59,081 bases of DNA from Thermoanaerobaculia bacterium (GCA_036266195.1 DATANP010000599.1:1-59081); one strand, 5' to 3'. Counted from the first letter of the stretch, positions 2,242 to 34,243 are shown. The notes: generated by a model not told the origin, from the letters alone. Numbers and translations are program-made.

Positions 2242-2531
2242 TGTTCTTCAAGGGCTCGCGCTACGAAGGCTCCCGTCCGTTCACGCCCGCGCCCGGCGGC
2301 CGCGAGGTGTTCCCCGGCGTGCGTCCGCGCGAGGTCGTGACCCGCGCCGGCGCCGTGGAGCACGTGATCCGGGCCGGCGACCGGCTCGATCTTCTGGCCC
2401 GTCACTACTACAACGACGACCGCCTGTGGTGGCGGATCGTGGACGCCAATCCCGAGGTGCTGTTCGCGGGCGACATGCTCGCTCCCGGCACCGAGGGCCA
2501 GGTCATCCTCATCCCGGCGGGGAGGGGCTGA
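2241..2531 (+). CDS. LysM-like / tail protein X (gpX)-like protein
   Basis: HVIRAGDRLDLLARHYYNDDRLWWRIVDANPEV fits the LysM/gpX pattern. Its position before the gpD-like gene is typical. Confidence 0.7.
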   Translation: MFFKGSRYEGSRPFTPAPGGREVFPGVRPREVVTRAGAVEHVIRAGDRLDLLARHYYNDDRLWWRIVDANPEVLFAGDMLAPGTEGQVILIPAGRG

Positions 2532-2534
2532 GGC

Positions 2535-3701
2535 ATGGTCCTGGACCTCTTCTCCGGCGCCCAGCGCGAGCCGGCCGGCTGCGTGGTCAAGGTGGGCGTG
2601 GCCCAGCTCGAGATCACCGATCTCTATCCCTTTCTGACCGGGGTGGACATCGAGTGCAGCCGCACGGACGCGTGGACCGCGACGCTCACGTTCGAGAGCC
2701 GCCGCGACGAGCAGGGCAAGTGGGCGGTCCAGGACTCCGGCGTGCTCGCGCCGTGGGAGCCGATCGTGATCGAAGCGTCGTTCGGCAGCCGCAGCGAGGA
2801 GATCTTCCGCGGCTACATCCGCGACGTCTCGGCGAGCTATCCCGAGGAGGCCGGCGCCGCCACGGTGACCGTCGAGTGCCAGGACGATTCGATCGTGCTC
2901 GACCGCACGCACGTGCGCCAGAGCTGGGGCGAGGCCGAGGCGCCGACCACGGACGGCCTGATCTTCCAGCAGATCGTGGCGCGCAACGCGCTCATACCCA
3001 GCCCCGAGAGCGGCCAGGGCCTCTCCGGCCTGCACCTGTTCCAGGACGCCACGGACGTGAGCTTCCTGCGCGACCGCGCCGAGGCCAACGGCTACGAGCT
3101 GATCTTCTCCGGCGGCATGGTCTACTTCGGACCCATGCGGCTGTCGGGCGAGCCGCAGCCCACGATCCTGGTCTATGCCGGCCGCGACACGAACTGCCTG
3201 CGCTTCGACGTGCGGGCGGACGGCCACCGGCCGGAAAAGGTTGCTTATGAAGTGGCCGCGACCGAGGGCACGGGCGTCCAGGAGCGCACGGTCGAGCCGG
3301 ACATCCCGCTGCTCGGCACCGAGCCGGCCTCCGGCGGCGGCCCGGGCCTGCCGGAGTACGTCTGGCGCCTGCGCCGCCAGGGCACGATCGACGAGGCCGA
3401 GCTGACCGCGCGCGCCCAGGCCAGGGCCAACGAGCTTTCGATGCGCGTCCAGGGCGACGGCGAGCTCGACGGCACGCTCTACGGCCACGTGCTGCAGGTC
3501 GGCGGGCTGGTCCCCGTGGATGGCGTGGGCGACCGCCTGAACGGCCTCTATTACGTCGATTCGGTTTCGCATCACTTTTCGACCGAGGGCTACAGCCAGA
3601 GCTTCCGGGTTCTGCGCAACGCCTACGGCGACAACGTCCCCTCCGGACCGCTCGGCGGACTGTCTGCGTCGGTGTCCGTCTCGTTCTCGTTCGGTTTCTG
3701 A
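2535..3701 (+). CDS. Phage late control gene D (gpD)-like baseplate hub protein
   Basis: 388 aa, with gpD-like N-terminal organisation and a position immediately upstream of the spike gene. Corresponds to the VgrG N-terminal half. Confidence 0.7.
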   Translation: MVLDLFSGAQREPAGCVVKVGVAQLEITDLYPFLTGVDIECSRTDAWTATLTFESRRDEQGKWAVQDSGVLAPWEPIVIEASFGSRSEEIFRGYIRDVSASYPEEAGAATVTVECQDDSIVLDRTHVRQSWGEAEAPTTDGLIFQQIVARNALIPSPESGQGLSGLHLFQDATDVSFLRDRAEANGYELIFSGGMVYFGPMRLSGEPQPTILVYAGRDTNCLRFDVRADGHRPEKVAYEVAATEGTGVQERTVEPDIPLLGTEPASGGGPGLPEYVWRLRRQGTIDEAELTARAQARANELSMRVQGDGELDGTLYGHVLQVGGLVPVDGVGDRLNGLYYVDSVSHHFSTEGYSQSFRVLRNAYGDNVPSGPLGGLSASVSVSFSFGF

Positions 3702-3716
3702 TCCTGGAGACACGCC

Positions 3717-4538
3717 GTGGATGAGCTGCTCCAACAGGTTGCCAAGCAGGTCCAGAAGAAGTACTACGGAAAGTTCCGCGGCTTCGTCGTGGACAACCAG
3801 GACCCGGAGAAGCGCGGGCGTTTGAAAGTGAAGGTCCCGTCGATCCTTGCCGAGACCGAGACCGGCTGGGCGCTGCCGTGCGTGCCGTTCGGCGGCCTCC
3901 CGGGCCACGGCCTGTTCCTCATCCCGGAGGTCGACGCGCAGCTCTGGATCGAGTTCGAGGAGGGCGAGCTCTCGCGGCCGATCTGGACCGGGACCTTCTG
4001 GCAGCAGGCTGGCGATCCGCCGGCCGAGGCCACCGAGGGCGACGGCACGAAGACGCGCCTGCTCAAGACGCCCGGCGGCCACGTCCTCCGCTTCGACGAC
4101 GAGAGCGACAAGGAGAAGCTCCAGCTCCTCCATCCGGGCGGTACCGAGATCGCGATCGACGAGAAGGGCATCCTCACGCTCACCGACCAGGGCGGCTCGA
4201 AGGTGACGCTCGATCCCGACGCCGGCAAGCTGATCGTCGAGGATTCGAACGGCAACACGCTCACCATGGATTCGAGCGGCACGCTCGTCGAAGACAAGAA
4301 CGGCAACAAGATCGAGATGGCCGCGGCGGGCATCAACGTCGAGGGCCAGAAGATCGTGATCAAGGGCTCGCAGGTGGTCCTCGGCGGCGACGCCGGCGAG
4401 CCGATCATCAAGGGCCAGAGCTTCCTCACCCTGTTCGCCACCCACGTCCATCCGACCTCGGCGCCCGGCGCTCCGACCGGCCCGCCGATTCCCCAGGGAG
4501 AGATGTCGAGCCTCTCCCAGAAGGTGATGACCGCATGA
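3717..4538 (+). CDS. gpV / gp5 OB-fold spike protein (VgrG C-terminal-half-like)
   Basis: YYGKFRGFVVDNQDPEKRGRLKVKVPSI...WALPCVPFGG is the classic gp5/gpV OB-fold signature. It is followed by beta-helix-like short repeats (KVTLDPDAGKLIVEDSNGNTLTMDSSGTLVEDKNGNKIEM). GGAGA lies 7 nt upstream of GTG. Confidence 0.85.
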   Translation: MDELLQQVAKQVQKKYYGKFRGFVVDNQDPEKRGRLKVKVPSILAETETGWALPCVPFGGLPGHGLFLIPEVDAQLWIEFEEGELSRPIWTGTFWQQAGDPPAEATEGDGTKTRLLKTPGGHVLRFDDESDKEKLQLLHPGGTEIAIDEKGILTLTDQGGSKVTLDPDAGKLIVEDSNGNTLTMDSSGTLVEDKNGNKIEMAAAGINVEGQKIVIKGSQVVLGGDAGEPIIKGQSFLTLFATHVHPTSAPGAPTGPPIPQGEMSSLSQKVMTA

Positions 4539-4915
4539 GACGCCTCGCGGATCCTCCGTATCTCGCGTTCCCCTTCCGCGTGAGCGACAGCGGGCCGGAG
4601 CTTTCCGACCGCAGCCGCCACCTGCGGGAGCAGATCGAGCAGGTGCTGTTCACCAATCCCGGGGAGCGCGTGTTCCGGCCGGACTTCGGCGCGGGCATCC
4701 GCACCCTGATCTTCGAGCCGAACACCTCGCCGCTGTGGACGATCACGCGCAAGCGGCTGATCGCTTCGCTGGCGGATGCCTTGAAGGGCGAGGTCGATCC
4801 GCGCAGCCTCACGATCGACGTCACCGGCGAGGAAGAAAAGGTTTTCGTCAACATCGCGTACACGCTCGCGACGCTCGGCCATACCGAGCAGCAGCGCTTT
4901 TCGGTGAGCGCCTGA
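4535..4915 (+). CDS. GPW/gp25-family baseplate wedge protein
   Basis: LAFPFRV...HLREQIEQVLFTNPGERVFRPDFGAGIRTLIFEPN is the gp25/GPW signature. ATGA overlaps the spike stop. The track ORF 3878-4915 is in frame, but only the distal part is coding. Confidence 0.9.
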   Translation: MRRLADPPYLAFPFRVSDSGPELSDRSRHLREQIEQVLFTNPGERVFRPDFGAGIRTLIFEPNTSPLWTITRKRLIASLADALKGEVDPRSLTIDVTGEEEKVFVNIAYTLATLGHTEQQRFSVSA

Positions 4916-4925
4916 GGAGGCGGCC

Positions 4926-6083
4926 ATGGCGGACACACCGGTCCAGGATCTCGAGTTCCAGGGGCAGTGCCCCGACTGCGGCAGCCGCCGCGTCGAGCTG
5001 CCCCGCGCCCTGCCCCCGGTCGGCGACGACTTCGACTGGCGGGTGCGCGATTACGACGGCTTCCGCGTCTTCCTCCTGGAAGAGCTCGCCGCCCGCTTCC
5101 CCGAGCGCTCGCGCTGGACGCCGGCCGATGTGGAAGTCACCCTCATCGAGGCGCTCTCGGCGGTGCTCGACCAGCTTTCCGACACGCTCGACCGCGTCTC
5201 GTCCGAGGCCTATCTCGAAACCGCGCGGCGGCCGGAGTCGGTCCGCCGCCTGCTCAAGATGATCGGCGCCGATCCTCTGGGCTCCAATTCCGACGAGCCC
5301 CCGGCCGACCGGCTCGCCCGCGAAAAGGAGCTGGACCTCTACTGGCAGAGCCATCCCGAGGCCATGGAAGCCGCGCGCCGCGCCGGGCCGCTGGCCATCC
5401 GCCGGCAGCGCCGCATGGTCACGACGGACGACTACGCGAACCGCCTCTCGGACCACCCGCTCGTGCTCCGCGCCCACTCCTGGACCGATTGGAGCGGCAC
5501 CTGGACGACCGTCCACGTCGCGGTCGTGGCCTGGGAAGAGCACCGGCTCGACGACGCGCCGGAGCTGCCCCAGGACCTGATCGACGAGGTCGAGGAGTTC
5601 CACCGCGAGCACCGCCTGCCGGTGCCGCTGTGGTCCGGCAAGCCCACGATCCGCCAGGTGCTGAGTCTGTATCTCGGCGCCTACCGCATGGCCGGCCAGG
5701 AGGTGCTCCTGGAGGACGCGGTGCCGGTGGGCGTGATTCTCGCGCTGACCCTCGTGGTGGACGAGCGCTTCTTCCGCTCCGAGGTGCGGCGCGCGGTCGA
5801 GCAGGCGCTGGGCCGCGGCCCCGGCGGCTTCTTCGAGCCCGGCCGCCTGCGCTTCGGCGAGGACCTGCACGCGAGCGACGTCTTCGAGGCCCTGATGGGC
5901 GTCGAGGGGGTCGTGGACATCACGCTCGACCGCTTCAAGCGCGTGGGCGCGGCCCACCCCGACCGCTCGGCCGAGGGTTTCATCCCGCTCCGCGGTCTCG
6001 AGGTCGCGGTCTGCGACAACGACCCGGTCCGGCCCGGCCGCGGCTACTTCCGACTCGATCTCTGCGGAGGGCGGAGAGGATGA
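4926..6083 (+). CDS. Baseplate J-like protein (small)
   Basis: GAGGAGG RBS. N-terminal pattern ...DYDGFRVFLLEELAARFPE...TLIEALSAVLDQLSDTLDRVSSEAYLETA resembles the Baseplate_J family. Sits in a conserved position after gp25. Confidence 0.7.
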   Translation: MADTPVQDLEFQGQCPDCGSRRVELPRALPPVGDDFDWRVRDYDGFRVFLLEELAARFPERSRWTPADVEVTLIEALSAVLDQLSDTLDRVSSEAYLETARRPESVRRLLKMIGADPLGSNSDEPPADRLAREKELDLYWQSHPEAMEAARRAGPLAIRRQRRMVTTDDYANRLSDHPLVLRAHSWTDWSGTWTTVHVAVVAWEEHRLDDAPELPQDLIDEVEEFHREHRLPVPLWSGKPTIRQVLSLYLGAYRMAGQEVLLEDAVPVGVILALTLVVDERFFRSEVRRAVEQALGRGPGGFFEPGRLRFGEDLHASDVFEALMGVEGVVDITLDRFKRVGAAHPDRSAEGFIPLRGLEVAVCDNDPVRPGRGYFRLDLCGGRRG

Positions 6084-9000
6084 GCGATTCAACGAGCGAC
6101 CTTACCCGATGGAACCGCGCGGGCCTGCCGCGCTTCCGATACGTCGACGGCAACGCGGCCGCCTGGCTGGAGGAGCTGCGCCTCGCGCTCCTCGCGCGCA
6201 ACCTGGAGCCGCTTCTCGATCCGAACCAGCCCGACCCTGCGTCGAGCCTCGACTGGTGGAAGGAGATCTGGCGCAAGCCGCCCGCGGATTCGCAGGGCCA
6301 GGTCTTCGTCAAGCAGATCCTCGACCAGGCGGAGACGCGGCTGCGCTGGCAGGCGCCCGAAGGCGCCGGCCCGCTCTGGGTGCGTCCGCCGGTAAGGCCG
6401 GAGCTCGAAACCGAGCACAGCACGCGCCTGCGCGAACAATACGAAGCAGGCCGCGGCGACCTCGCCTGGGAGATCGTGCGCTCGTTCGCCCGCGGCGTCC
6501 ATGTGCTCACCGAGCACCTCGACGCCTACGCCAACGAGGGCTATCTCGGCACCGCAACGCAGTGGGAGAACGTCCGCCGGCTCATCGCCATGCTCGACGT
6601 TCGTCCGGCGCCGCCCGCCTCGGCCTCGACCGTTCTGGTGCTGGAGGCCAAGGGCATCGGTACGGTTGCGAAAGGTTTTCAGATCAAGCACTCGCCCCCG
6701 GACGGCGGCGCGCCGGTGATCTTCGAGACGCTCGACGACCTGGAGGTCGATCCCGGCCTGAACGCCCTGCGTCCGCTCGATCACGACCGGAGCACCGCCG
6801 TCACCCAGGGGACCCGGATCGAGCTGGAGGGCCGCGTCAAGGGTCTCAAGGCCGGCGAGCCGCTCGTGCTGGAAGACGAGCGCAGCGGCGAGCTTCACGC
6901 CTACCTGATCCAGTCCGTGTCCGAAGAGGAGACGGTCACGCGCGTGGACGTCACTCCGCCGGTCAAGAGCGGCATTCCGAAAGGTTATGCCCGGGTCCAC
7001 GCCACGCCGCGCGAGCGCCTCGCGCCGCTCGCTCCGGCTTCCAAGGGCGCCGAGGTAGGCAAGTCGCTGCAACTGGCCGAGGAGCCCGCGGGGCTTCAGC
7101 CCGGCGACGTGGTCTGGATCAGCGACGGCCACCAGCCGATCTATCGCAAGGTGCAGCAGGTCCGCGGCCGGCGGATCATCCTGGACGCCGGGATCGGCGA
7201 TCTGCGGGCCGACCTGACCGTCGTGGGCCGGCCGATCGTGCTCTCAGTCACCGATATCGGGCAGCGCGAGATCGAACACGACACCTCCGGCACCCTCCAG
7301 TCCACCATCCTCGCGATCCGCGTGGCCGGCGATTGGACGCGCCTCGCGAACGACTGGCTGGCCGACAAGGTCGTGACCACCGGGGGCAACCCCCTGCCGC
7401 TCTTCCAGGTGATCAGCGCCGACTACCGGCCGGTGGGAAGCGTGACCGACAACGAAGGGCATCTCGACCCCAACGGCGGCTACACCGTTCTGCGTCTCAA
7501 GTGGACGCACCAGAGCAACCTCTCGAACCCGCAGGCCCTCCTGGCGCCGCCGCCCGGCGGCGGCCTCTGGCGGGCGGACCGCTTCCTGGAGAAGCCCTCC
7601 GGCAAGCTGCCCGCGGAGATCGTCTCGGCCCTGCCCAAGAAGGCCGCGGCCGGCGACGTGGCGGTGGTGGCGAGCGGCTCGACCCTGGCCTGGACGCGCC
7701 TCGCGGCCGTCGAAGCCGACGCCGACGCGGGCACCGCGCTGCTGCGGGCCGGCGAGGGTGGCTGGAAGGACCGCGGCGGCGGACCGTTTTTCCTGGCCGA
7801 GACCCGCGTCTTCACCAAGTTCGAGCGCTCCGCCCGCGTCCTCGGCTGGTCCGCGAACAACACGCCGATCACGGGCACCGAGGTCCCCCTGCCGGCCAAT
7901 GTCCCGGCCGCCCTCCGTCCGGGACGGACCGTGGTGGTGGAGCTGGACGATCAGCCTTCCGCCGCTCTGGCTTCGCGGGTGATCGCCGTGGCCAACGCCA
8001 AGGCGACCCTCGACCGTCCGCTGCCGGCAGGCGCCCGCTTCGACAACCTGGTCCTGCGCGCCAACGCGGTGCTCTCCGGCCATGGCGAGGCCAAGGGCGA
8101 GCGGGCTCTCGGCAGCGGCGACGCGTCGCGCTCGCACCAGACCTTCCGGTTCGACGAGAAGGGCGTCTCCTTCGTGGCCGATCCCGCGCAGCCCTCGGGC
8201 GTGCGCGCGGCCATCGAGGTCCGCATCGCCAACCGGGTCTGGCAGCAGGTGCCGACCCTCGCCGACTCCGGCCCGGCCGACCCGCACTACACCGTGCGCA
8301 TGACCGAGGACGGCGGCATCGAGCTGGCATTCGGCGACGGCCGCAACGGGCGCCGTCTGCCCACAGGCGTCAACAACGTGCGCCTGGCCTGGCGCTCGGG
8401 CACCGGCCTCGCCGGCAACCTGCCCTGGGGCAGGCTGGTCAAGGCGGCCCGGCCCAACCCGCTGATCGAAGCCGTGCGCCAGCCCCTGCCGGCCACGGGC
8501 GGCAACGACATGGAAAGCGTCGAATCCATGCGGGCCACGGCTCCGGCCAGCGTCTCGACCCTGGGCCGCGCCGTGTCGCTGGGCGACTATGGGCGCCTGG
8601 CCGCGAGCCAGAGCAGCGTCTGGCAGGCCGCGGCGTTTTCCATGCCGACCGGACTCGCCCGCAAGGACAGCGTGCGGGTCGTGGTCGTGCCGGCCGGCGG
8701 CGGCCAGCTCGGCGCGCTGGCGGCCCAGATTCAGGCGTTCCTGGAGTCGCACGCGCTGCCTGGCGTGGCCGTCAAGGTCGATCCCTACCGCTCCGTGGGC
8801 TTCAGCCTGCGGGTCGAGCTGCAGATCGTGACCGCCGAGTTCGACCCCGAGCGGGTGTCGGACACGGTCCGCGCGCGCCTCCTGGCCGCCTTCGGCCTGC
8901 GCGCGCGCAAGCTCGGCCAGGCCCTGCGCCTGTCCGAGGTCTTCCGCATCGTCGAGGGGGTGCCGGGCGTGGCGAACTCCCTCTGTGTCCTCGACAACGA

Positions 9001-9100
9001 TCCGAAGAAGGTCCGCGTGGACGCGCCGGCGGACAGGGTGGCCCACCTCGACGCCAGCACCTCCTCGCTGACCATCCTTCACAGGGAGTTCGAGCTGTGA
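6080..9100 (+). CDS. Large putative baseplate assembly protein (gpJ-like, TIGR02243-type)
   Basis: Starts at ATG 6080 (ATGA overlap), in frame with track ORF 4967-9100. The MSDSTSDLTRWNRAGLPRFRYVDG N-terminus and the C-terminal ...LPATGGNDMESVESMRATAPASVSTLGRAVSLGDY resemble gpJ-type baseplate proteins of tail-like particles. Confidence 0.7.
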   Translation: MSDSTSDLTRWNRAGLPRFRYVDGNAAAWLEELRLALLARNLEPLLDPNQPDPASSLDWWKEIWRKPPADSQGQVFVKQILDQAETRLRWQAPEGAGPLWVRPPVRPELETEHSTRLREQYEAGRGDLAWEIVRSFARGVHVLTEHLDAYANEGYLGTATQWENVRRLIAMLDVRPAPPASASTVLVLEAKGIGTVAKGFQIKHSPPDGGAPVIFETLDDLEVDPGLNALRPLDHDRSTAVTQGTRIELEGRVKGLKAGEPLVLEDERSGELHAYLIQSVSEEETVTRVDVTPPVKSGIPKGYARVHATPRERLAPLAPASKGAEVGKSLQLAEEPAGLQPGDVVWISDGHQPIYRKVQQVRGRRIILDAGIGDLRADLTVVGRPIVLSVTDIGQREIEHDTSGTLQSTILAIRVAGDWTRLANDWLADKVVTTGGNPLPLFQVISADYRPVGSVTDNEGHLDPNGGYTVLRLKWTHQSNLSNPQALLAPPPGGGLWRADRFLEKPSGKLPAEIVSALPKKAAAGDVAVVASGSTLAWTRLAAVEADADAGTALLRAGEGGWKDRGGGPFFLAETRVFTKFERSARVLGWSANNTPITGTEVPLPANVPAALRPGRTVVVELDDQPSAALASRVIAVANAKATLDRPLPAGARFDNLVLRANAVLSGHGEAKGERALGSGDASRSHQTFRFDEKGVSFVADPAQPSGVRAAIEVRIANRVWQQVPTLADSGPADPHYTVRMTEDGGIELAFGDGRNGRRLPTGVNNVRLAWRSGTGLAGNLPWGRLVKAARPNPLIEAVRQPLPATGGNDMESVESMRATAPASVSTLGRAVSLGDYGRLAASQSSVWQAAAFSMPTGLARKDSVRVVVVPAGGGQLGALAAQIQAFLESHALPGVAVKVDPYRSVGFSLRVELQIVTAEFDPERVSDTVRARLLAAFGLRARKLGQALRLSEVFRIVEGVPGVANSLCVLDNDPKKVRVDAPADRVAHLDASTSSLTILHREFEL

Positions 9101-17757: not shown

Positions 17758-19034
17758 GATTTCACTGCATCGGGATGAATTGGCAGGACTACAGTGAAGT
17801 AGGAACGCCCTTCGTCGAACTCAAACCGAGGCTCCGGTGAACCGTTGGCCGCCATGGCCCGGAAGATCTTGGGAATTCCGGTACTGCGGGTCTCTGCGAG
17901 CTTCAGCTCCTTGAGCAACTCGCCGATGCGCCGGTTCCGGGCAGGAACCTGAGGGATGCGGCGTCCGGGCGCGAAGTCCTCCGTCTTGAGACCGGGTACC
18001 GGGCCTGGGTAGCTGGTTATCACCAACTCGGTAGGGTAGAGATAGACCTTGGTAGGCTGTTCCGCCCGATAGTCGCGGTGGTGGACGGCATTGACAACCG
18101 CCTCCTCGATGGCAGCAAAGGGGTAGGCATCCCAGGTTGTTGCCTCCGGTCGATCGGGATGCTTGCGCACGAACTGTCCCACCAGAGTGCGCAAAACTCC
18201 GAGGCAGTCGCGCACCTGACGGTGAACAGGGCCCCGGAAGATGCGCTCTTCGAGGATGTCGCCGCCTGCGTCATCTTCGAACCGGACGACGTCAATCCGG
18301 GCACCGGGAAAATGACGATCCGGATCATCGCTGAAGAAAAGAAGGGCGACGTTGCGCGGCGCCTCATGGCCATTCATTCGGTAGACGAGTTGCATGGCCC
18401 GGTACATCTCCCGATCGTCGGGCTCGTCAATGAGGGCGCTGCCGACTTCCTTCAAGAGCTCGCGGACGAGAGTGGAACGCAGGTCGTACATGTCGAATCG
18501 CGGAGCCGGCTGGTCGTCGAACGGCACCCAGCGGGTCATCTGCAGGAGCTCCGTCAGCACGGTGCCTCTCGCTTCGACGGTCTTCGAGCCGAGACGGACC
18601 CAGAAGCGGCGGTCTCCTGCCCGCGCTCCCGGCAGACTGTGCGGCCGGTTGAAGCTGCCGTGAGCCCAGACGGCCAGAATGTGCCGGCCATCTACGACCT
18701 CGTGGGAAAGGACGGGCTGATAGACAGGATCCATCCGCTGGCAGTTGCCGCGGATCCAGCGCTGGATCCGCTCCAGGGATGACGGATCGAGCCCTTTCGG
18801 GGGCAGTTGGGCGACGCCGTCCTTCTCCTCGACCCCGAGGATGATGTAGCCGCCGTTGACGTTGTAGTAATCGTTCGCGAAGGCGCAAATGGTCTCCAGA
18901 ACCTGCTGGGCTGTCGGGCCCTCGTTCCAACTGCTCTTGAATTCGACGCGAGCGGCCTCGACCCCACGGCGATAGAGGAGGTCGTAAACCGAAATCGGCA
19001 GAGCGCTGGTGGGAACCGCGCCTTCAGTCTCCAT
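17754..19034 (-). CDS. AlbA_2 (Schlafen-type) DNA/RNA-binding domain plus HATPase_c_4-like C-terminal domain protein
   Basis: RVEFKSSWNEGP...ICAFANDYYNVNGGYIILGVEEKDG is AlbA_2. EEAVVNAVHHRDY...ARNRRIGELLKELKLAETRSTGIPKIF is the C-terminal ATPase-like/wHTH module of RecG-like putative regulators. GGAGAA lies 11 nt upstream of ATG. Confidence 0.85.
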   Translation of the reverse strand: METEGAVPTSALPISVYDLLYRRGVEAARVEFKSSWNEGPTAQQVLETICAFANDYYNVNGGYIILGVEEKDGVAQLPPKGLDPSSLERIQRWIRGNCQRMDPVYQPVLSHEVVDGRHILAVWAHGSFNRPHSLPGARAGDRRFWVRLGSKTVEARGTVLTELLQMTRWVPFDDQPAPRFDMYDLRSTLVRELLKEVGSALIDEPDDREMYRAMQLVYRMNGHEAPRNVALLFFSDDPDRHFPGARIDVVRFEDDAGGDILEERIFRGPVHRQVRDCLGVLRTLVGQFVRKHPDRPEATTWDAYPFAAIEEAVVNAVHHRDYRAEQPTKVYLYPTELVITSYPGPVPGLKTEDFAPGRRIPQVPARNRRIGELLKELKLAETRSTGIPKIFRAMAANGSPEPRFEFDEGRSYFTVVLPIHPDAVKS

Positions 19035-19068
19035 GAGCGGGCGTTTTCTCCTGGGCCGTCGGCCCTAC

Positions 19069-19086
19069 AGGTGATACCGGTCACCT
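19069..19086. promoter_or_regulatory. Inverted repeat AGGTGA-N6-TCACCT upstream of the AlbA_2 gene (possible operator)
   Basis: Read directly. The 6-bp arms are perfect reverse complements. It lies 35-52 nt upstream of the start codon at 19034. Confidence 0.25.
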
Positions 19087-19180
19087 CCCGGTTGAAGACT
19101 TTAGCAGGTGGCGGCCTGAGAAGGTCCGCCCTGGACCAAGGTGCCCGGGCGATCCCCGCTGCCATCGCCGATTCCGGCGG

Positions 19181-19706
19181 CCCGTAGAAGGTTACAGCAG
19201 CCCATAGAAGGTTGCGGCGGCCCGTAGAAGGTTACGGCAGTCCGTAGAAGTTTCCGTGGGCCCGTAGAAGTTTCCGTGGGCCCGTAGAAGGTTATGCCGG
19301 CTCGTAGAAGTTTACGTCGGCCCGTAGAAAGGTTGCGCCGGCTCGTGGAAGTTTCCGTCGGCTCGTAGAAGTTTACGGCGGCCCATAGAAAGTTTCCGTG
19401 GGCTCGTAGAAGGTTACGTCGGCCTGTAGAAGTTTCCGGCGGCTCGCAGAAAGTTTCCGCCGACTCGTAGAAGTTTACGGCGCCCCGCAGAAGGTTACGG
19501 CAGCCCATAGAAAGTTTCCGCCGGCCCGTGGAAGTTTCCGTCGGCTCGTAGAAGGTTACGGCGACCCGTAGAAGGTTACGGCAGCCCGTAGAAAGTTTCC
19601 GGCGGCCCGTAGAAGTTTCCGCCGGCTCGTAGAAGCTTCCGCCGGCCCGTAGAAAGTTTCCGCCGGCCCGTAGAAGGTTGCGGCGGGCCGTAGAAGGTTA
19701 CGACGA
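19181..19706. repeat. Array of 26 head-to-tail 20-21-bp direct repeats (approx. consensus GGCCCGTAGAAGKTTWCGGC), no spacers
   Basis: Hand-counted 26 units over 526 bp. The core CGTAGAAG is nearly invariant. The unit length is not a multiple of 3. Confidence 0.95.
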
Positions 19707-20060
19707 CTCCGGCTCGACGACCCGGTGCCCGCAGACGCCGCAGCGGCCGGTGACGGCGGCAATCTCACCGGTCGTGCCGAGCAGCGCCTCGCCGCAGGAC
19801 GGGCAGGCAAGGCCGAACTTCCGCACCCGACGCTCCTCCAACTGGGGAACGAAGATCGTAGCGGTTGCCAGCGTGGCGACCAGCGCGGCGAAGGCCGCGA
19901 CTTCCGGCCAGACACCCCAGCGGTCGACGTCGATGCCTTTGAAAGAGCCCACTACCAAGGGAGCAAGCACGGGGATGAAGACGAAGAGGAAGGGCGTCAT
20001 CCGTCCCCGGGCGGCACGTTGGAACGCCTGCTGCCGTTCGACAAGCTCGACGTGGGTCAT
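19698..20060 (-). CDS. Small membrane protein with C-terminal CxxC...CxxC zinc ribbon (120 aa)
   Basis: Start at MTHVELVERQ with GAGG about 10 nt upstream. Two hydrophobic helices (FLFVFIPVLAPLVVG, AAFAALVATLATATIFV), then ACPSCGE...GRCGVCGH. Confidence 0.5.
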   Translation of the reverse strand: MTHVELVERQQAFQRAARGRMTPFLFVFIPVLAPLVVGSFKGIDVDRWGVWPEVAAFAALVATLATATIFVPQLEERRVRKFGLACPSCGEALLGTTGEIAAVTGRCGVCGHRVVEPESS

Positions 20061-23761: not shown

Positions 23762-26700
23762 CTCTGACTCCTATCCCCTGAAGCATCTGAATCCGGTCTG
23801 CTGATCTCGTCCATTTCGGGATTGAAACCTGTGATTCGAGCGCGGCGCTCGTAGGGAAGCTCTTTCTCTCTCCGGGTCGCGGCCGAAGGAGAGAGCGTCC
23901 TTGGCGATGACGCGTCGTGTGGCCGTACGCGCGGGAACCTGTCTTGCGTTCCTCGTTCTGCTGGGCGCTCCCTTGCTGGGCGGCCGTTTCCGGCTGTCCA
24001 ACCCGGAGTCTCCGGTCTACTATCGCTACGCCGTCATCGCGGGCGAGAGGATCCAACTCGTCGAGGGAACCCGGGTTGCCGGCAATCTCCACTCGAACGG
24101 CGATGTGAGCACCGCCTCCGGCGTCCTGATCGACGGCGACGCTTCGACGGTAGGCAAGATCACGGGCCCGGGAACCGTAACGGGAACGAAGAGAGAAGGG
24201 GCTCCGTCCGTCTCCCTGCCCCGGCTGGCGACCGCCGCCGAGCTTCAGGCGATGGCTGACCGGAAGCTCCAGGGAGATCAGACGTTCAACAACGCGGTCG
24301 TCGACGACGTCATCTTCGTCAACGGCCGGGTGAGGATCCAGGGCAGCCTCGGCGGCGCCGGCACCATCCTGGCGACCGGCGACGTGACCCTGGAATCCAG
24401 CGCGGCCGTGCCGGGTCCGGGGACGCGGATCTCCGTGGTCTCCCTGGGATCGATCGCTCTGGCCGAGGGCCGCGCGTTTCGCGGCATCCTCTATGCCGGC
24501 CAGGACGTGCAGGCCGGCCGCGGCGCGCAGCTCGAAGGCGTCGTGCTGGCCGGCCGCCGCGTTCATCTCAATGGAGACGTCCGGCTGACCTTTGTCAACT
24601 TCGACAGCGGCCCGCCGGTCATTACCTTGCTGTCGCCCGCGGCAGGCGCCTTCCTTTCCACGGCGATCCCGCAGATCACGCTCTCGTTCTCCGACGACCT
24701 CTCGGGCGTGGACCCGTCGACGGCGTCCTTCCTTCTCGACGGCCAGGACCGCACGGCCGGGGCCACCGTGAGCGCGACGGGCTTGAGCTTCCAGCCCGCG
24801 CAGCCGCTCGCTGACGGTCTTCATAAGATCGTGGTGCGGATCTTCGATCATTCGGGCAAGGAAGCTTCCGCGGAATTTACCTTCACCACCGACACGGTCG
24901 CGCCCGCGCTGCGGATCGCCTCCCCCGGCCCGACTGTGGATGGCGACTCCACGCCGGCTGTTACCGTTGAATTCTCCGACGCCGCCTCGGGCATCGATCC
25001 GGAGACCCTGGAGGTCGAGATCGATGGCGTGTCGATTCAGAGCTCGTGCGTCCTGTCCGAGAGCTCCGCTGTGTGCGAGCCGCCCGAGCTGGCGGAAGGC
25101 CGGCACACGATCGTCGCGGAGGTCGCCGATCGCGCGGGCAACCGTACGACCGCGGAATCGAGCTTCGACATCGTGCTCGACCGCAAGCCGCCCGCGCTGC
25201 GGATCGTCTCTCCCTCGGTCGGCCTGACCGTCGGCGACGCCACGCCTGAGATCGTCCTGTCGTACTCGGATGCGGGCTCCGAGGTCGATCTGGCCACGCT
25301 GAGCGTGGTCCTCGACGAGCAGGACCTGACGGCGGGGTGCGACGTGCAGCCGAATAAGGCCACCTGTGAGCCGCCGCCTCTGGCCGCCGGACTTCACATC
25401 CTGAAAGCCGCGATCGCGGACCGGAGAGGATTCCGAGCGGAACGCGAGCGGGTCTTCGAGATCTCGCTGCAGCTTGCCTTGATGATCGAAGCGCCGGCCC
25501 AGGGCGAGCTGACCCAGGCCTCCACCGTGGAGGTCTCGGGCACGATCTCTCCCGAGGCCGACTCGGTCTCGGTGAACGGAATCGAGGGCGTCCCCCAGAA
25601 CGGCATCTTTGTCATCGCGGATGTGCCCCTGCACGAGGGCGGCAACACCCTGACCGCGATCGCGCGCAGCGAGGGCGGCGGCATCGGAACGGCCACTGTG
25701 ACAGTGGTGCGGGATACCGCGGCGCCGAGGGTCGTCATCGCCGCGCCCCATGCCGGATTGATCACGACCTCGCCGCAGATCGCGGTCACCGGCGAATACG
25801 TCGATCCCTTATCGAGCAACGCCGACGTGGCTCCGCCGGTGGTGAAGGTCAACGGCTTCGTGGCAAAGACGGAGCTGCGGACGTTTTCCTATGACAACCT
25901 GCTCCTGCAACCTGGAGAAAACCTGATCCGCGTGACCGTGACGGACACGGCGGGCAACGAGGGCTCGGCCGAAGTGTCGGTGACGCTCGTGCAGGACGCG
26001 GCGCAGCAGATCGAAAAGCTTTTGGGAGACGACCAGTCGGGGCCGGTCGGACAGAGGTTGAAAGATCCGCTGGTGATGCGGCTCCGCGATGTGATCGGCA
26101 ACCCGCTGCCGGGCCGGCGCGTGCTGTTCGAGGTAACGCGTGGAGGCGGGCAGGTGGTGGCCGGAGGAGAGGAAGCGAGCAAGCTGTCGGTTTCAACCGA
26201 CGAGCAGGGGCTTGCCCGGGTGGACTTCTTCCTGGGCCGCCGGGCCGGCGCGGGCAACCATGAAGTGACGGTGACCTCGGCCGGCTTCCCGGGAGAGATC
26301 ACCTTCTCCGCCTCGGCAACGGTGAGCGAGCCGCGCCGCATCGTGCGAGCGGCCGGAGACGATCACACGGGAGCGATGGTCGCGGCGGTGTCGGAGCCTT
26401 ATCCCAAGCCCCTGTTGACGCAGGTTTTCGATGGTCAGGGCAACCCGGTGCAGAACGTGCCGGTGACCTATCGCGTGATCTCGGGCGGCGGCTCCTTCGC
26501 CGGGGCCGAGACCGTGACCGAGGTCACCAACGGCCAGGGGCTCGCCTCGGCGACCTTCACTCTGGGGCCGCAGCCGGGAAACATGATCAATCTGGTCGAG
26601 GCAGGCTTCGATGGATTGGCCGAGCTGCCGGTAACCTTTGCGATCACCGGCATGGTGCTGGGCCCCGAGGAGGAGACCGCGATCGTCGGCTTGGTGCTGG

Positions 26701-27412
26701 ACAACCAGGACGATCCGGTTCCAGGCGTTACTCTGGCCGTCGATCACACAGACCTCACGGCGGTCTCCGACGCGCAGGGCCGCTTCCGTATCGCCGGGGT
26801 TCCTGTGGGAACGGTCAAGCTCAAGGTCGACGGCAAGACCACGAGCCGGCCCGGAACCTGGCCGTATCTGGAATTCCATTTCACCACCATCAGCGGCGTG
26901 GACAACAGTCTGGGGATGCCGATCCGTCTGCTTCCGATCGATGTCGCGGGCGGGAAGCTGGCTGGCGGTCCGGAAGAAGTCGTGATCCAGATGAAGGGAG
27001 TCCCCGGAGCGACACTGACAGTGGCGCCCAATTCAGTGACCTTCCCCAATGGATCCAAGGTCGGCACCGTCTCCTTCACCCAGGTCCATGGCGACAAGGT
27101 GCCGATGATCGCGCCGCTGGGCTCGAACTTCACGGTGGCATTCACGGTCCAGCCGCCGGGCACGCGCTTCGATCCTCCGGCGGTGGTGACGCTGCCAAAC
27201 ATCGGCCTGCCGCCGGGCTCCGAGGTGGATCTCTTCTCCTTCGATCACGACATCGGCGAGTTCCTCTCGGTCGGTACCGCGACGGTGACGCCGGACGGCC
27301 TGCTGTTGCGCTCGAACCCGGGCACCGGCATCAGCAAAGCCGGCTGGGGCGGTGGGGTTCCTCCACCGCCGCCGTTATCCGACGCTTGCCAACCGGGCGC
27401 TTGTACGACCTG
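23733..27412 (+). repeat. Copy 1 of a ~3.7-kb direct duplication (promoter, leader and N-terminal ~1160 codons)
   Basis: The protein alignment with 30558-34243 is roughly nine in ten identical by eye, and becomes almost identical in the last ~280 codons before the junction. Confidence 0.9.
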
Positions 27413-28940
27413 CGTCGATGGGCGGCCGGTGTCGAAGTGCGGGCCTTGTGAGCGCTGCGATGGGAGCCAAGGTTGTGTGATCGCAAGCCTGGATGGATTG
27501 CAGATATTTGCGGATTCGCTTGAAGGTGAGGAGACCAGCGAATTCGGCCTGCTCTCTTCCTCTGCCCGCCTTGCAGCCCGTGCCACGACCGCGGCGCGTA
27601 AGATAACAGTTGGTCTCAATGTCCCGATACAGTTCAGGGCAGTGCCTCCGGACAAGTGTTGCACTTCAGTAAGTTATAGATGGGACTTCAAGGATGGAGG
27701 ATCTTCCACGGATCAAAATCCGAAACACACGTTCAAGCAGAGAAAAACATATCCCGTCGAGCTGGTCGCCACCTGCTCCAGCTGCCCCGCGACCAAGACC
27801 GAAACCATGGACGTCGAAGTCATTGCATCCATTCAGATCAACACGGTCATATCGAATCAATTCCCAGGTTCGCGCTGTAACCTGTTGACAGCAACCTCGG
27901 TCCCGGGATCCAACAATCCGATGCTCATGGGAACTCTCGGAGGAGCCTCTACGGAAGTTCTCCTGGAATCCAAGGTCGTTCCCAAGGAAGCTCTTGCGCT
28001 GGCACGGATCGGCGTGCGGAAGGTTGGTTCCAGTAGCCCGATATTCGAAGAGAAGGTGTCGAGTTTGACGAGCCCGACTTCTCTACGTTTCGATGCCCAG
28101 CCCGGCCGTTTGCGTTATGAGGTGGTGGCAGGCTTCGATGACAACTCGTCGAGCGGCCTACAGGATTCCGAGATCGACCAGGTCTTCCCACACAAGATCC
28201 GCGTGGTGACTCCGCAGGATGTCACAGAGTCCCTGGAGGGTATCGATGGCGATGAAATCCTGCTGGTAGGGGCCGCGCAGGACCTGACCGACTATTTCCT
28301 TGCAAAGACGGCAGGTGTGGTCAATGCAAGCCTGGTTCCAACGACCATTGCGGCGAGTGATCTGGCTCATCCTCTCGGTGCCTCATGGACTTCGGCTTGC
28401 GTGGCCACCACCGTTAGAGCTGCTTATGGACCAACATCGCCTGTGGCAGACAAGCTGGCCAATTCGGAGAAGGTGGAGGATTTAGTGAAGGCTGCTCTCA
28501 GCAGCCACGCAACGAGCATCAAGGCATTCTTCAGCTCGCCGAGCAGTCCGAATACCGCTCTATTTCCGGCGGTACTTGGAGGAACTTGGACATGGTCTGG
28601 TTCCGTCCGTTCTGCAGGAGACTGGGCGAAAGATGGAGAGATGGAAATCGCAGGAGCCTTCGGGGCCGTCAATCTGAAAGGAGAGATCAGAGAGGTCGAG
28701 ATCCGTAAGTCGGACTTGCAAGTCATGAAAATTCTCTATACCGGAGAGCTTGCCGAGTCCTACGATTTCGATATAACGAAGCCGCCAATCCCCATTCTGG
28801 GACTTTCCTTTGACGTCAATCGGGATGGAGCTACCATGCAGGCTGGTCACACAACAATCAACCCGGGCGGGCAAGTGTTCAGGACGAGCGTCAACTTCTC
28901 GAGAATTGCTGGCTCAGAGTTTGACTTTGAGATTCCATAA
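23901..28940 (+). CDS. Large secreted Ig-like-repeat protein, paralogue A (1679 aa), with unique C-terminal ~510 aa
   Basis: TTG 23901 (GGAGA 8 nt upstream) or ATG 23907. Signal peptide RRVAVRAGTCLAFLVLLGAPLLG. Beta-helix-like N-domain, three tandem ~100-aa Ig-like repeats (PPVITLLSP...DTVAPALRIASP...), further beta-sandwich domains, a CarboxypepD_reg-like segment (VGLVLDNQDDPVPGVTLAV...GRFRIAGVPVG) and a PKD-like segment (SYRWDFKDGGSSTDQNPKHTFKQRKTYPVEL). Confidence 0.85.
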   Translation: MAMTRRVAVRAGTCLAFLVLLGAPLLGGRFRLSNPESPVYYRYAVIAGERIQLVEGTRVAGNLHSNGDVSTASGVLIDGDASTVGKITGPGTVTGTKREGAPSVSLPRLATAAELQAMADRKLQGDQTFNNAVVDDVIFVNGRVRIQGSLGGAGTILATGDVTLESSAAVPGPGTRISVVSLGSIALAEGRAFRGILYAGQDVQAGRGAQLEGVVLAGRRVHLNGDVRLTFVNFDSGPPVITLLSPAAGAFLSTAIPQITLSFSDDLSGVDPSTASFLLDGQDRTAGATVSATGLSFQPAQPLADGLHKIVVRIFDHSGKEASAEFTFTTDTVAPALRIASPGPTVDGDSTPAVTVEFSDAASGIDPETLEVEIDGVSIQSSCVLSESSAVCEPPELAEGRHTIVAEVADRAGNRTTAESSFDIVLDRKPPALRIVSPSVGLTVGDATPEIVLSYSDAGSEVDLATLSVVLDEQDLTAGCDVQPNKATCEPPPLAAGLHILKAAIADRRGFRAERERVFEISLQLALMIEAPAQGELTQASTVEVSGTISPEADSVSVNGIEGVPQNGIFVIADVPLHEGGNTLTAIARSEGGGIGTATVTVVRDTAAPRVVIAAPHAGLITTSPQIAVTGEYVDPLSSNADVAPPVVKVNGFVAKTELRTFSYDNLLLQPGENLIRVTVTDTAGNEGSAEVSVTLVQDAAQQIEKLLGDDQSGPVGQRLKDPLVMRLRDVIGNPLPGRRVLFEVTRGGGQVVAGGEEASKLSVSTDEQGLARVDFFLGRRAGAGNHEVTVTSAGFPGEITFSASATVSEPRRIVRAAGDDHTGAMVAAVSEPYPKPLLTQVFDGQGNPVQNVPVTYRVISGGGSFAGAETVTEVTNGQGLASATFTLGPQPGNMINLVEAGFDGLAELPVTFAITGMVLGPEEETAIVGLVLDNQDDPVPGVTLAVDHTDLTAVSDAQGRFRIAGVPVGTVKLKVDGKTTSRPGTWPYLEFHFTTISGVDNSLGMPIRLLPIDVAGGKLAGGPEEVVIQMKGVPGATLTVAPNSVTFPNGSKVGTVSFTQVHGDKVPMIAPLGSNFTVAFTVQPPGTRFDPPAVVTLPNIGLPPGSEVDLFSFDHDIGEFLSVGTATVTPDGLLLRSNPGTGISKAGWGGGVPPPPPLSDACQPGACTTCVDGRPVSKCGPCERCDGSQGCVIASLDGLQIFADSLEGEETSEFGLLSSSARLAARATTAARKITVGLNVPIQFRAVPPDKCCTSVSYRWDFKDGGSSTDQNPKHTFKQRKTYPVELVATCSSCPATKTETMDVEVIASIQINTVISNQFPGSRCNLLTATSVPGSNNPMLMGTLGGASTEVLLESKVVPKEALALARIGVRKVGSSSPIFEEKVSSLTSPTSLRFDAQPGRLRYEVVAGFDDNSSSGLQDSEIDQVFPHKIRVVTPQDVTESLEGIDGDEILLVGAAQDLTDYFLAKTAGVVNASLVPTTIAASDLAHPLGASWTSACVATTVRAAYGPTSPVADKLANSEKVEDLVKAALSSHATSIKAFFSSPSSPNTALFPAVLGGTWTWSGSVRSAGDWAKDGEMEIAGAFGAVNLKGEIREVEIRKSDLQVMKILYTGELAESYDFDITKPPIPILGLSFDVNRDGATMQAGHTTINPGGQVFRTSVNFSRIAGSEFDFEIP

Positions 28941-30586: not shown

Positions 30587-33500
30587 CTTCGTCGCCCATC
30601 CAGTATGCATCGGAATCAGGTTTGGTGCTCTCGTCTTTTTCGAGATTGAACCTGTTCGGCGATTTGAGCGTGGCGCTCGTAGGGAAGCTCTGTCTATTTC
30701 TTCCGTTGCACGGTTGAAGGAGAAGTGCCCTTGACGATGATGCGTCGTGCGGTCGTACGGGCAGGAGCCTGTCTTGCGTTCCTCTTCCTGCTGAGCGCCC
30801 CGTTGCTGGGCACCGGTTTCCGGCTCTCGAGCCCGGAATCCGCGGTCTACTACCGGTACGCCGTGATCGCGGGCGAGCGGATCCAGATCGTCGAGGGGAC
30901 CCGGATTGCCGGCAATCTCCAATCGAATGGCGACGCGAGCACCGCCTCCGGCGTCGTGATCGACGGCAACGCCTCGGCCGTGGGCAAGATCACGGGCCCC
31001 GGCACCGTGACGGGAACGAAGAAGGAAGGAGCCCCGTCCGTCTCCCTGCCCCGGCTGGCGACCGCCGCGGAGCTCCAGGCGATGGCCGACCGGAAATTCC
31101 AGGGCGATCAGATATTCAATAACGCGGTCGTCAACGACGTCATCTTCATCAACGGCCGGGTGAAGATCCAGGGGAGCCTGGGCGGCGCCGGCACCATCCT
31201 GGCGACCGGCGACGTGACCCTGGAAGCCAGCGCGGCCGTGCCGAGTCCGGGGACACGGATCTCCGTGGTCTCCCTGGGATCGATCACTTTGGCCCAGGGC
31301 CGCTCGTTCCGGGGCATCCTCTATGCCGGCCAGGACGTGCAAGCCGACCGTGGCGCGCAACTGGAAGGTGTCGCGCTGGCGGGCCGCCGCGCCAATCTCG
31401 GAGGAGACGTTCGGCTGACCTTTGTCGACTTCGACAGCGGCCCGCCGGTGATCACCCTGCTGTCGCCCCTAGCAGGCGCTTTCCTTTCCACGGCGACCCC
31501 GCAGATCACCCTCTCGTTCTCGGACGATCTCTCGGGTGTGGACCCGGCGACGGCGTCGTTCCTCCTCGACGGCCAGGACCGCACGGCCGGAGCCACGGTG
31601 AGCGCGACGGGCTTGAGCTTCCAGCCCTCCCAACCGCTCGCCGAAGGTCTCCATGGGATCAGGGTGAGGGTCTCCGATCACTCGGGCAAGGAAGCCTCTG
31701 CTGAGTTTTCCTTCACCATCGACACGGTCGCCCCCGTGCTGCGGATCACCTCCCCGGGCCCGATTGTCGAGGGCGACTCCACGCCGGCTGTTGTTCTCGA
31801 ATTCTCCGATGCCACCTCGGGTATCGATCCGGCGACCTTGGAGGTCAAGGTTGACGGCGCGTCGATCCGGGGCTCGTGCGCCGTGACCGCAAGCTCCGCC
31901 GTGTGCGAGCCGCCGGAGCTTGCGGAAGGCCAGCACGCGATCACAGCGATGATCGCCGACCGCGCCGGCAACCGCTCGACGGCGGAGTCGAGCTTCGAGA
32001 TTGCGCTGGACCGCGTTCCGCCGGTGCTGCGGATCGTCTCTCCCCCGGCCGGTCTCATCGTTGGCGACGCCACGCCCGCGATCGTCCTGTCATATTCAGA
32101 TGTGGGGTCCGGAGTCGATCTCACTACGCTGAGCATCATCCTCGACGGGCAGGATCTGACAGCCGGGTGTGACGTGCAGCCGGACAGGGCCACCTGTGAG
32201 GCGCCGCCTCTCGCCACCGGCCTCCATACCTTGAAGGCCGCGATTGCGGACCGGAGAGGATTCCGTGCGGAACGCGAACGGATTTTCGAGGTGTCGATGC
32301 AGCTTTCCCTCGTGATCGAAGCGCCGGTCCAGGGCGAGCTGACACAGGCCTCCACCGTGGAGGTCTCCGGCACGGTGTCTGCCGAGGCCGACTCGGTCTC
32401 TGTGAACGACATCGAGGGAGTCCCGCAGAACGGCGTATTTGTGATCGCAGACGTGCCCCTGCACGAGGGCGGCAATACCCTGACCGCGATCGCCCGCAGC
32501 GAGGGTGGCGGCATCGGCACGGCCACCGTGACCGTAGTGAGGGATACTTCGGCGCCGAGAGTCGTCATCGCCGCGCCCCGCGCCGGGCTGGTGACGACCT
32601 CGCCGCAGATCGCGGTCACCGGCGAATATGTTGATCCATTGTCGAGCAACGCCGACGTGGCTCCGCCGGTGGTGAAGGTCAACGGCTTTGTTGCGAGGAC
32701 GGAGCTGCGGACGTTCTTCTATGACAACCTCCTCCTGCAACCCGGAGAGAACCTCATCCGCGTGACCGTCACGGACACGGCGGGAAACGAAGGCTCGGCC
32801 GAGGTGTCGGTGACGCTCGTGCCGGACGCGGCGCAGCAGATCGAAAAACTCTTGGGAGATAGTCAGTCGGGACCAGTCGGCCAACGTTTGAAAGACCCGC
32901 TGGTGGTGCGCCTCCGTGACGTGGTCGGAAACCCGCTGCCGGGCCGGCGCGTGCTTTTCGAGGTGACCCGTGGAGGTGGGCAGGTGGCGGCTGGAGGCGA
33001 GGAGGGGAGCAAGCTGTCGGTTTCGACCGACGAGCAGGGTCTGGCCCGAGTGGACTTCTTCCTGGGCAGCCGGGCCGGCGCGGGCAACCACGAGGTGACG
33101 GTGACCTCGGCCGGCTTCCCTGGAGAGGCGACCTTCTGCGCCTCGGCAGCGGTGAGCGAGCCGCGCCGCATCGTGCGGGCGGCCGGAGACGATCACACGG
33201 GAGCGATGGTAGCGCCAGTGTCGTCGCCCTACCCGAAGCCCCTGTTGACGCAGGTTTTCGACGATCAGGGCAACCCGGTGCAGAACGTGCCGGTGACCTA
33301 TCGCGTTGTGTCGGGCGGAGGCTCCTTCGCCGGGGATGAAACGGTGACCGAGGTCACCAACGGCCAGGGGCTCGCGTCGGCGACGTTCGCCCTGGGGCCG
33401 CAGCCCGGAAACGTGATCAATCTGATCGAGGCAGGCTTCGATGGGCTCGCCGAGCTGCCGGTGACCTTCGCGATTACCGGTGTGATGCCGGGGCCCGAAG

Positions 33501-34243
33501 AGGAGACCGCGATCGTCGGCCTGGTGCTGGACAATCAGGATGATCCGGTTCCAGGTGTGACGCTGGCCGTCGATCACACGGACCTCACGGCGGTCTCCGA
33601 CGCGCAGGGCCGCTTCCGCATCGCCGGGGTTCCCGTGGGCACGGTCAAGCTCAAGGTCGACGGCAAGACCACAAGCCGGCCTGGGACCTGGCCTTATCTG
33701 GAGTTCCACTTCACCACCATCAGCGGCGTGGACAACAGTCTGGGAATGCCAATCCGACTGCTGCCGATCGACGTCGCAGGTGGGAAACTGGTTGGCGGTC
33801 CGGAAGAAGTGGTGATCCCGATGAAAGGCGTCCCCGGGGCGACGCTCACTGTGGCGCCCAACTCGGTTACGTTCCCGAATGGAGCCAAGGTCGGTACGGT
33901 CTCTTTCACGCAGGTCCATGGAGACAAGGTGCCGATGATCGCGCCCATGGGCTCGAACTTCACGGTGGCCTTTACAGTGCAGCCGCCGGGCACGCGCTTC
34001 GATCCACCGGCGGCCGTGACCCTGCCGAACATCGGCCTGCCGCCGGGCTCAGAGGTCGACCTCTTCTCCTTCGATCACGACATCGGCGAGTTCCTCTCGG
34101 TCGGCACCGCGACAGTGACACCGGACGGCCTGCTTCTGCGTTCGAATCCGGGCGTCGGCATCAGCAAGGCTGGGTGGGGCGGCGCGGTTCCGCCACCGCC
34201 GCCGCTGACGAATGCTTGTGAGCCTGGCTCCTGTACAAAATGT
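30558..34243 (+). repeat. Copy 2 of the ~3.7-kb direct duplication
   Basis: See copy 1. Confidence 0.9.

Follow-up and report, generated by a model that had tools for sequence, protein, structure and literature searches.

The window, by which is meant the whole stretch of 59,081 nucleotides analysed here (Thermoanaerobaculia bacterium, GCA_036266195.1 DATANP010000599.1:1-59081), carries a tandem array between two minus-strand genes. To the left of the array lie an eCIS locus, a DinB_2 gene and a minus-strand gene with AlbA_2 and HATPase_c_4 domains, and to its right lie a membrane zinc-ribbon gene, an isoamylase gene and the genes of very large surface proteins. The features at and beside the array are as follows (coordinates of the window).

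17754-19034, minus strand: AlbA_2 (Schlafen-type) and HATPase_c_4 gene (Pfam PF04326 and PF13749)
19035-19178: unique spacer of 144 nt from the array to the AlbA_2 start, with no unit-like site in the matrix scan
19179-19704: tandem array, consensus GGCCCGTAGAAG[G/T]TT[A/C]CG[N]C on the plus strand, defined by Tandem Repeats Finder (TRF), unit parsing, column statistics and matrix scan
19279-19704: super-period of 61 bp (20+20+21) in the array, TRF period 61 with 0% indels
19698-20060, minus strand: zinc-ribbon gene, 120 aa, two transmembrane helices and a C-terminal CPSCG...CGVCG

The eCIS locus (window 1-17210) encodes Pvc16_N, a CIS tube protein, a baseplate V (OB) protein and a DUF6519 protein, together with a 1083-aa protein that has an N-terminal eCIS_core/DUF4157 domain and is a likely payload. 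On the other side, two paralogous genes at 23901-28940 and 30725-35950 (their first 300 nt are 85% identical and lie 6830 nt apart) encode surface proteins of ~1700 aa that contain Glucodextran_B, Big_13 and PKD domains, and one ORF of 6913 aa fills 36809-57550, its many coding repeats of 66-69 nt being of the DTDGDGL type (thrombospondin type 3 / calcium-binding). The isoamylase has homologues at 75-84% identity that are assigned to Thermoanaerobaculia, which places the uncultured source organism in that class of Acidobacteriota. With the isoamylase gene, the eCIS locus and the giant surface proteins around it, the array looks chromosomal in context.

The zinc-ribbon gene is intact, and the last unit of the array provides its TAA stop. 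A search of 1.84 billion representative proteins found 296 relatives, which align from the Met at 20060 (residue 19 of a longer ORF) through the C-terminus, the closest being 61% identical with the same end point; no Pfam, NCBIfam or PADLOC family was matched by the protein. The module of two transmembrane helices and CxxC...CxxC is a family without a name, many relatives carry two or three such modules in tandem, and one match showed seven stretches in 1287 aa. The AlbA_2 protein matches the N-terminal part of the PADLOC pAgo model and Argonaute-associated SIR2-PNTD models. Its gene has a GC3 of 0.74 versus ~0.92 in the neighbouring genes, a low value that suggests horizontal acquisition. Homologues of the protein have varied C-terminal additions (TPR, SAVED-type PF18145, NA-iREase3) and stand in a different context in each genome.

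By core-anchored parsing, the 526 nt of the array were divided into 26 contiguous head-to-tail units, 20 of them of 20 nt and six of 21 nt. TRF placed the array at 19175-19702 with a period of 20, 26.1 copies, 78% matches, 2% indels and a score of 484, and fitted it also at a period of 61 (8.7 copies, 0% indels) and at a period of 81. The first-pass annotation had counted 26 contiguous spacer-less units over 526 bp at 19181-19706, coordinates that are 2 nt off for the same array, and had described three interspersed flank variants; unit parsing bears out the count and the variants, with six 21-nt units in place of the seven claimed. The array fills, as had been described, the interval between the zinc-ribbon stop codon and the spacer before AlbA_2: its last unit holds the TAA (19698-19700, minus strand) and its left edge lies 144 nt from the AlbA_2 start (19034).

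With up to 3 mismatches, the 16-mer CCGTAGAAGKTTMCGG gave 28 matches in the window versus 1.27 expected, far more than chance would give, 22 of them within the array; the six others, each with 3 mismatches, were at about chance level and not unit-like. A position weight matrix gave at least 23.4 bits for each of the ungapped 20-nt units scored (20 of the 26), and the best score in the rest of the 59-kb window on both strands was 12.9 bits. The unit is restricted to the array locus within the 59 kb scanned, and the dispersed generic repeat that had been raised as a refutation was not seen there by either scan. Degenerate units in the flanks, which had been suspected by eye, were rejected because the matrix scan did not confirm them, and the edges of the array are sharp. 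No sigma-70-like promoter and no intrinsic terminator were found around the array or in the 144-nt spacer, and no inverted repeats were found flanking the array. A small dyad, GGTGA-N6-TCACC (19070-19085), precedes the AlbA_2 start by 36-51 nt and could be the operator of AlbA_2 itself.

Two readings of the 526-bp block are at issue, a protein-docking array with regular spacing and a minisatellite that is old and frozen, and the variation among the units bears on both. The flanks of the units read GGTTAC (seven units), GGTTGC (three), GGTTAT (one), GTTTCC (eleven), GCTTCC (one) and GTTTAC (three), which amounts to 11 units of the GGTTAC type, 12 of the GTTTCC type and 3 with GTTTAC. Six columns of the 20-nt unit are invariant (G9, A10, A11, G(12), T14 and T15). 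No two of the 26 units are identical, the mean unit identity is independent of distance (0.77-0.81 over lags 1-12), and no significant duplications of multi-unit blocks were detected in the array. Because all units differ and identity does not depend on distance, the array is old and is not now expanding; the hypervariable minisatellite proposed at first is at present unlikely, neighbouring units being no more alike than distant ones. Expansion or collapse of the repeat by the assembler, which might be suspected since the window is probably a metagenome contig, is hardly credible: 26 unique units give a path that ordinary k-mers can resolve, intact genes abut both edges, and comparable arrays occur in independent assemblies.

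Columns 4, 13, 16 and 19 hold most of the changes (index of dispersion 6.45). These variable columns are scattered rather than clustered (p = 0.83), and without them the remaining columns vary uniformly at ~5% (P = 0.17), so the substitution pattern alone is no proof of selection; a few ancestral unit types followed by uniform mutation give an equal picture, which counts against a binding array. The same pattern favours a neutral fossil, in which replication slippage or unequal recombination would have amplified a 20-nt seed from the zinc-ribbon gene's 3' end, at one stage as a 61-bp block, until amplification stopped, the units having drifted by ~5% per site since and serving no function. Equal unit quality and sharp edges are likewise what one amplification burst is expected to leave. 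We consider this neutral history a serious possibility, though on balance a somewhat doubtful one.

The doubt comes mainly from the lengths of the units. The 21-nt units are units 8, 11, 14, 17, 21 and 24, each with a single extra A after GAA, so that 21-mers stand at every third unit (p = 0.0017-0.006 under random placement), and the mean period of the array is 20.2-20.3 bp. This extra A is the sole length change in 526 bp. Amplification as a block should raise the identity at lag 3, yet no lag-3 substitution signal was found (0.797 versus 0.79 at other lags) while the every-third 21-mers are kept; their spacing without such a signal favours a spacing constraint over a mere record of block duplication. 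Neutral drift is further at odds with the lack of any other accumulated indel, and with a bacterial deletion bias that should purge 526 useless base pairs, as the divergence of the units indicates long persistence.

On the plus strand TAG occurs in 22 of the 26 units and, given the period of 20/21, stops hit every frame; the minus-strand ORFs across the array are purely mechanical, and for the open frame of that strand no relatives were found at E <= 0.1 among 5.8 billion proteins. The array is non-coding, as the first-pass annotation had held. Rfam gave no match at gathering thresholds over the whole window, nor at E <= 1 over 18900-19900, and folding of the whole array was weakly below that of shuffles (z = -2.8 for the plus strand and -1.55 for the minus strand). 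The 5-bp mini-hairpin CCGTA/TACGG, to which attention had been drawn earlier, can form only in GTTAC and TTTAC units, about half of all; in 11 of the 26 units its middle pair is a T:C mismatch, and compensatory changes are absent. Folding of single units, too, was negative or weak. The changes thus do not keep the hairpin, and recognition would be of sequence rather than of RNA or single-stranded DNA structure.

A transcribed repeat RNA, carried within a zinc-ribbon-AlbA_2 transcript or made from its own promoter, might act as a protein or sRNA sponge, as a type-III-antitoxin-like inhibitor of AlbA_2 or as a precursor of 20-21-nt guide-length RNAs. It would be in keeping with the shared strand of the two flanking genes and the lack of any terminator-like site between them, with the match of the AlbA_2 module to Argonaute-associated defence models, with the guide-length units, and with a large unrelated array that lies 136 nt downstream of an AlbA_2 homologue (59% identity) whose genome has 44% GC. 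We nevertheless judge it improbable, since it has neither conserved secondary structure nor covariation to show beside the weak fold scores and the empty Rfam search, the six closer AlbA_2 homologue loci have no arrays, the region of the 59% homologue is repeat-rich in general, and an RNA role does not require even spacing of the 21-mers. The orientation of similar arrays relative to neighbouring genes, described below, is inconsistent, which is tolerated by a role at the DNA level and not by a cis-acting RNA.

The first-pass annotation had placed every core on the same face of the DNA. This holds locally and fails across the array: a period of 20.23 bp at 10.5 bp per turn rotates the core by ~-26 degrees per unit, and by the same arithmetic the cores spiral through ~1.9 turns over the whole array. 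A period of 20.3 bp would be in phase only at 10.17 bp per turn, which is not relaxed B-DNA. Modelling of curvature, which had been recommended, was performed with a dinucleotide wedge model and gave an end-to-end/contour ratio of 0.96 for the array, compared with 0.92 +/- 0.05 in genomic windows and with 0.92 when the columns of the array were permuted. Intrinsic curvature was rejected, as the ratio of the array is within the range of genomic windows and the model predicts nothing unusual. The period out of phase with relaxed B-DNA and the lack of a special shape in the wedge model both count against a binding array.

Seven loci of AlbA_2 homologues were retrieved, six at 81-86% identity and one at 59%. 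At the six closer loci (in different contexts: L247, L248, L249, L261, and L262 with its near-identical copies) the upstream regions are short and array-free, so the earlier proposal of a giant operator or enhancer for AlbA_2 is not supported. A conserved partnership of array and AlbA_2 was rejected on these six loci and on the unrelated array, amid other repeats, of the 59% homologue. Judged from this comparison, the array does not serve the AlbA_2 family as a dedicated operator, and AlbA_2 is its neighbour rather than a demonstrated partner. Downstream of the 59% homologue, a gene-free, repeat-rich stretch of 1.7 kb (L257 6770-8520, also in L258-L260) holds CTAGGGCTTTGTCATT about 30 times, spaced by 20 or 33 nt, and after these come five units of 53 nt in which the palindrome AAAAAATCCGATTTTTT occurs. 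Among relatives of the isoamylase at 77-94% identity nothing was common beyond the isoamylase gene itself, and synteny was lacking. The neutral history described above gains from this, as relatives have other genes beside the isoamylase, the array lies in a variable and probably horizontally acquired stretch (by the GC3 of AlbA_2), it has no conserved partner, synteny or flanking similarity, and promoter, terminator, Rfam and structural signals are missing.

The array was compared with known repeat systems. CRISPR arrays have repeats of 23-50 nt with unique spacers, whereas the units here are of 20/21 nt and strictly contiguous, and Pfam scans covering 14 of the window's large ORFs found no cas genes; that this is not CRISPR had been stated correctly from the start. 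The parC repeats of pSK41 are 20 bp long. Like type II parC (pSK41 and R1, bound by ParR), the array consists of spacer-less head-to-tail direct repeats upstream of genes. In pSK41 a continuous run of tandem repeats precedes the par operon, and in ParR or omega complexes the row of bound protein forms a superhelix (PMC5016525). Cooperative binding that leads to such a superhelical filament in parC is shared by the present array only as a proposed geometry. Unlike parC, which has 4-10 units, it has 26 of unrelated sequence, is accompanied by neither parM/parR nor another partition gene, and lacks plasmid matches in a context that looks chromosomal; the adjoining genes are those for AlbA_2/HATPase_c_4, the membrane zinc ribbon, DinB_2 and isoamylase. 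With the iterons of Rep or O proteins (17-22 bp) it shares unit size, direct orientation, spacing of about two helical turns and a conserved core with degenerate positions, and it differs from them in a far higher copy number and in having no adjacent initiator gene, DnaA boxes or AT-rich unwinding element.

That the array is a parC/sopC-type centromere or a block of replication iterons from an integrated plasmid or another mobile element, for which contiguous direct repeats of about two helical turns would speak, is accordingly very unlikely. GC is 0.58-0.69 across 18.9-20.2 kb with no AT-rich unwinding region, Pfam scans of the neighbours gave no ParA/ParM/ParR/ParB, Rep, integrase or relaxase, flanking inverted repeats are absent, and searches of 72,556 plasmids, 50,697 phages and viral contigs showed no similarity to the array. 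On these results, the array is most probably not a site of plasmid partition or replication.

As in bacterial VNTR minisatellites, a class of 10-100 bp made by slippage or unequal recombination, the repeats are head-to-tail and non-coding, but here identical units and any effect of adjacency are missing and the length variants are evenly spaced; the searches made yielded no second copy of the locus. A repeat block that immediately precedes a putative defence gene of the nuclease type, with both on one strand, recalls ToxI-type loci, whose units are of ~36 nt in 2-6 copies as against 20 nt in 26 copies; unlike ToxIN, the locus has no intervening terminator, no ToxN-family toxin and no co-inheritance with AlbA_2 homologues. 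REP/BIME elements are similarly extragenic and GC-rich with a GTAG motif (found in 20 of the 26 units) and partial dyad symmetry, but the present unit is not dispersed over the 59 kb, all its copies are direct, and the hairpin is missing in half of them, the stem occurring in about half without compensatory changes. No Y1/RAYT gene was seen near the array. A link to REP/RAYT was rejected, since the unit is not dispersed and the unit of a second array, that of L247, does not flank the Y1 transposase fragment found there.

Arrays of similar period were encountered in other genomes. In ~170 kb of sequence from relatives two more non-coding-looking arrays, with cores unlike that of the window, were met without having been searched for (L245 and L247), and three others (L036, L080 and L241) were found through a search for the core motif, so that their likeness to the window is partly by construction, a point that weakens them as support for a binding array. 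The five are as follows.

L245, 7577-7846: Thermoanaerobaculia MAG GCA_031390755.1, 12 units of 20/21 nt
L247, 1587-1867: ~13 units of 21 nt, CGTGAC-N4-GTCrCGG
L036, 5891-6155: Polyangiaceae, 21-nt unit CTCGTAGAAGGCCTTCCCGCC
L241: soil, 18 units, GGATCCCGTAGAAGTTTrTsGG
L080: Acidobacteriota, next to a brnT gene, 20-nt units, 15 or more

At L245 the isoamylase is 87% identical to that of the window, and the array begins 4 nt past the stop of a DUF885 gene. Its GCTTCG is invariant within the dyad CGAAGsGCTTCG, the linkers of 5-6 nt are near-random, and the variable columns are clustered (p = 0.0008). Its 20- and 21-nt units are evenly interspersed (mean 20.4), no two 21-mers standing side by side, for which the chance by arithmetic is 56/792 = 0.07. 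No compensatory pairs were seen in the dyad, one half-site of which is more conserved than the other; uneven half-sites and the absence of compensation favour recognition of sequence over a hairpin. Such conservation of motif versus linker is not predicted by neutrality.

The array of L247 is overlain by a called gene of 93 aa without a Pfam match, and the same entry (1587-1867 and 5712-7334) has a 126-nt repeat in 13 copies within a gene of 672 aa, with a Y1 transposase fragment of 90 aa nearby. The core at L036 (CGTAGAAGGCCTTCC) is similar to that of the window, and the likeness of the unit extends well past the 7-mer searched; the array starts exactly at the stop of the upstream gene, its first unit supplying the TAG. 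At L080 GTAGAAG occurs in only 3-4 of at least 15 units, so its likeness to the window comes mostly from how it was found. The L080 array contains two inverted units, and a long inverted repeat, AGAGACGCCCCGCCGTCCCCG ... CGGGGACGGCGGGGCGTCTCT, lies at 7240-7435 between the brnT toxin gene and the array. The arrays of L036 and L241 run in the sense direction of the flanking genes, those of the window and L080 in the antisense direction.

Common flanks, as a mobile element would leave, were not found among the arrays, and a mobile element with shared flanks was rejected on this comparison. The neighbours differ at every array (AlbA_2/zinc ribbon, BrnT, ferredoxin, DUF885/glycerate kinase, S8-like protease), and no candidate binding protein is conserved beside them, which again counts against a binding array. 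In 1.88 Mb of unrelated loci, the independent 18-23-bp arrays of at least 8 copies all had a period of 18 or 21, which is what coding repeats should show. A loose search for three 7-mers (3 x GTAGAAG), which returned mostly 21-nt coding repeats, also gave many non-coding-looking 20-21-bp arrays in diverse phyla (L109, L218, L102, L094, L019 and L036); arrays of this period are thus not rare, which again suits a neutral origin. L243 and L242, from a metagenome scan, were rejected as chance matches (a coding PETVEGS repeat and a low-complexity contig). A young array of 34 copies of the 20-nt unit TTTACTCAACTCTTCTAYGT with 88% matches was seen at L109 3085-3768 in a 33%-GC genome, so long period-20 arrays occur outside high-GC phyla too. 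No description of Acidobacteriota arrays of such a kind was found in the literature searched.

Weighing these observations, we tentatively favour, at somewhat less than even likelihood, a helically phased direct-repeat array of binding sites for a putative DNA-binding protein, built by minisatellite-type amplification. It draws on units that are all strongly consensus-like though all 26 differ, on sharp edges, and on even length variants with no lag-3 signal and no other indel. It draws further on the independently found L245 array, with its design of motif plus linker and its ~20.4-bp mean period, on the similar design at L247 (1587-1867, 21 nt), and on the L036 unit, which is alike beyond the searched 7-mer. 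The array would be double-stranded, non-coding chromosomal DNA, a 20-nt unit of which was amplified in the manner of a minisatellite, probably as a three-unit block of 61 bp, and which is now kept as a regular row of 26 candidate recognition sites with the core CGTAGAAG-N-TT-N-CG. A putative sequence-specific protein would bind these sites cooperatively, and with one protein or dimer per ~20.3 bp successive sites would turn by ~-23 to -26 degrees. From this turn we infer, along with protein binding itself, a slowly winding superhelical nucleoprotein filament of iteron- or centromere-like geometry. The iteron- or centromere-like idea of the first-pass annotation survives in this form only, as a working model without family membership, which the spacing evidence favours although no partition, replication or other cognate gene adjoins the array.

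A broader proposal, which we regard as unlikely, is that the array belongs to an undescribed, widespread class in Acidobacteriota, Myxococcota and other high-GC soil bacteria, namely phased 20-21-bp arrays kept by selection, with cores of the GAAG...(C)TTC type and often placed at or near an upstream stop codon, which would form a superhelical filament with a putative DNA-binding protein as a chromosomal segrosome-like scaffold, a boundary or insulator, or a titration array, and not as a plasmid centromere.

If the array is an old neutral minisatellite, diverged minisatellites can persist for long in large GC-rich genomes and can mimic functional arrays, and the locus cautions against inferring gene linkage from adjacency, here to a defence-type AlbA_2 gene. 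If the phased array of binding sites is real, some bacterial chromosomes carry long and precisely spaced docking rows outside partition and replication modules, the 14-nt motif is defined as a bait for the protein, and abundant uncultured soil phyla would possess an unrecognised system that organises DNA or titrates a regulator.
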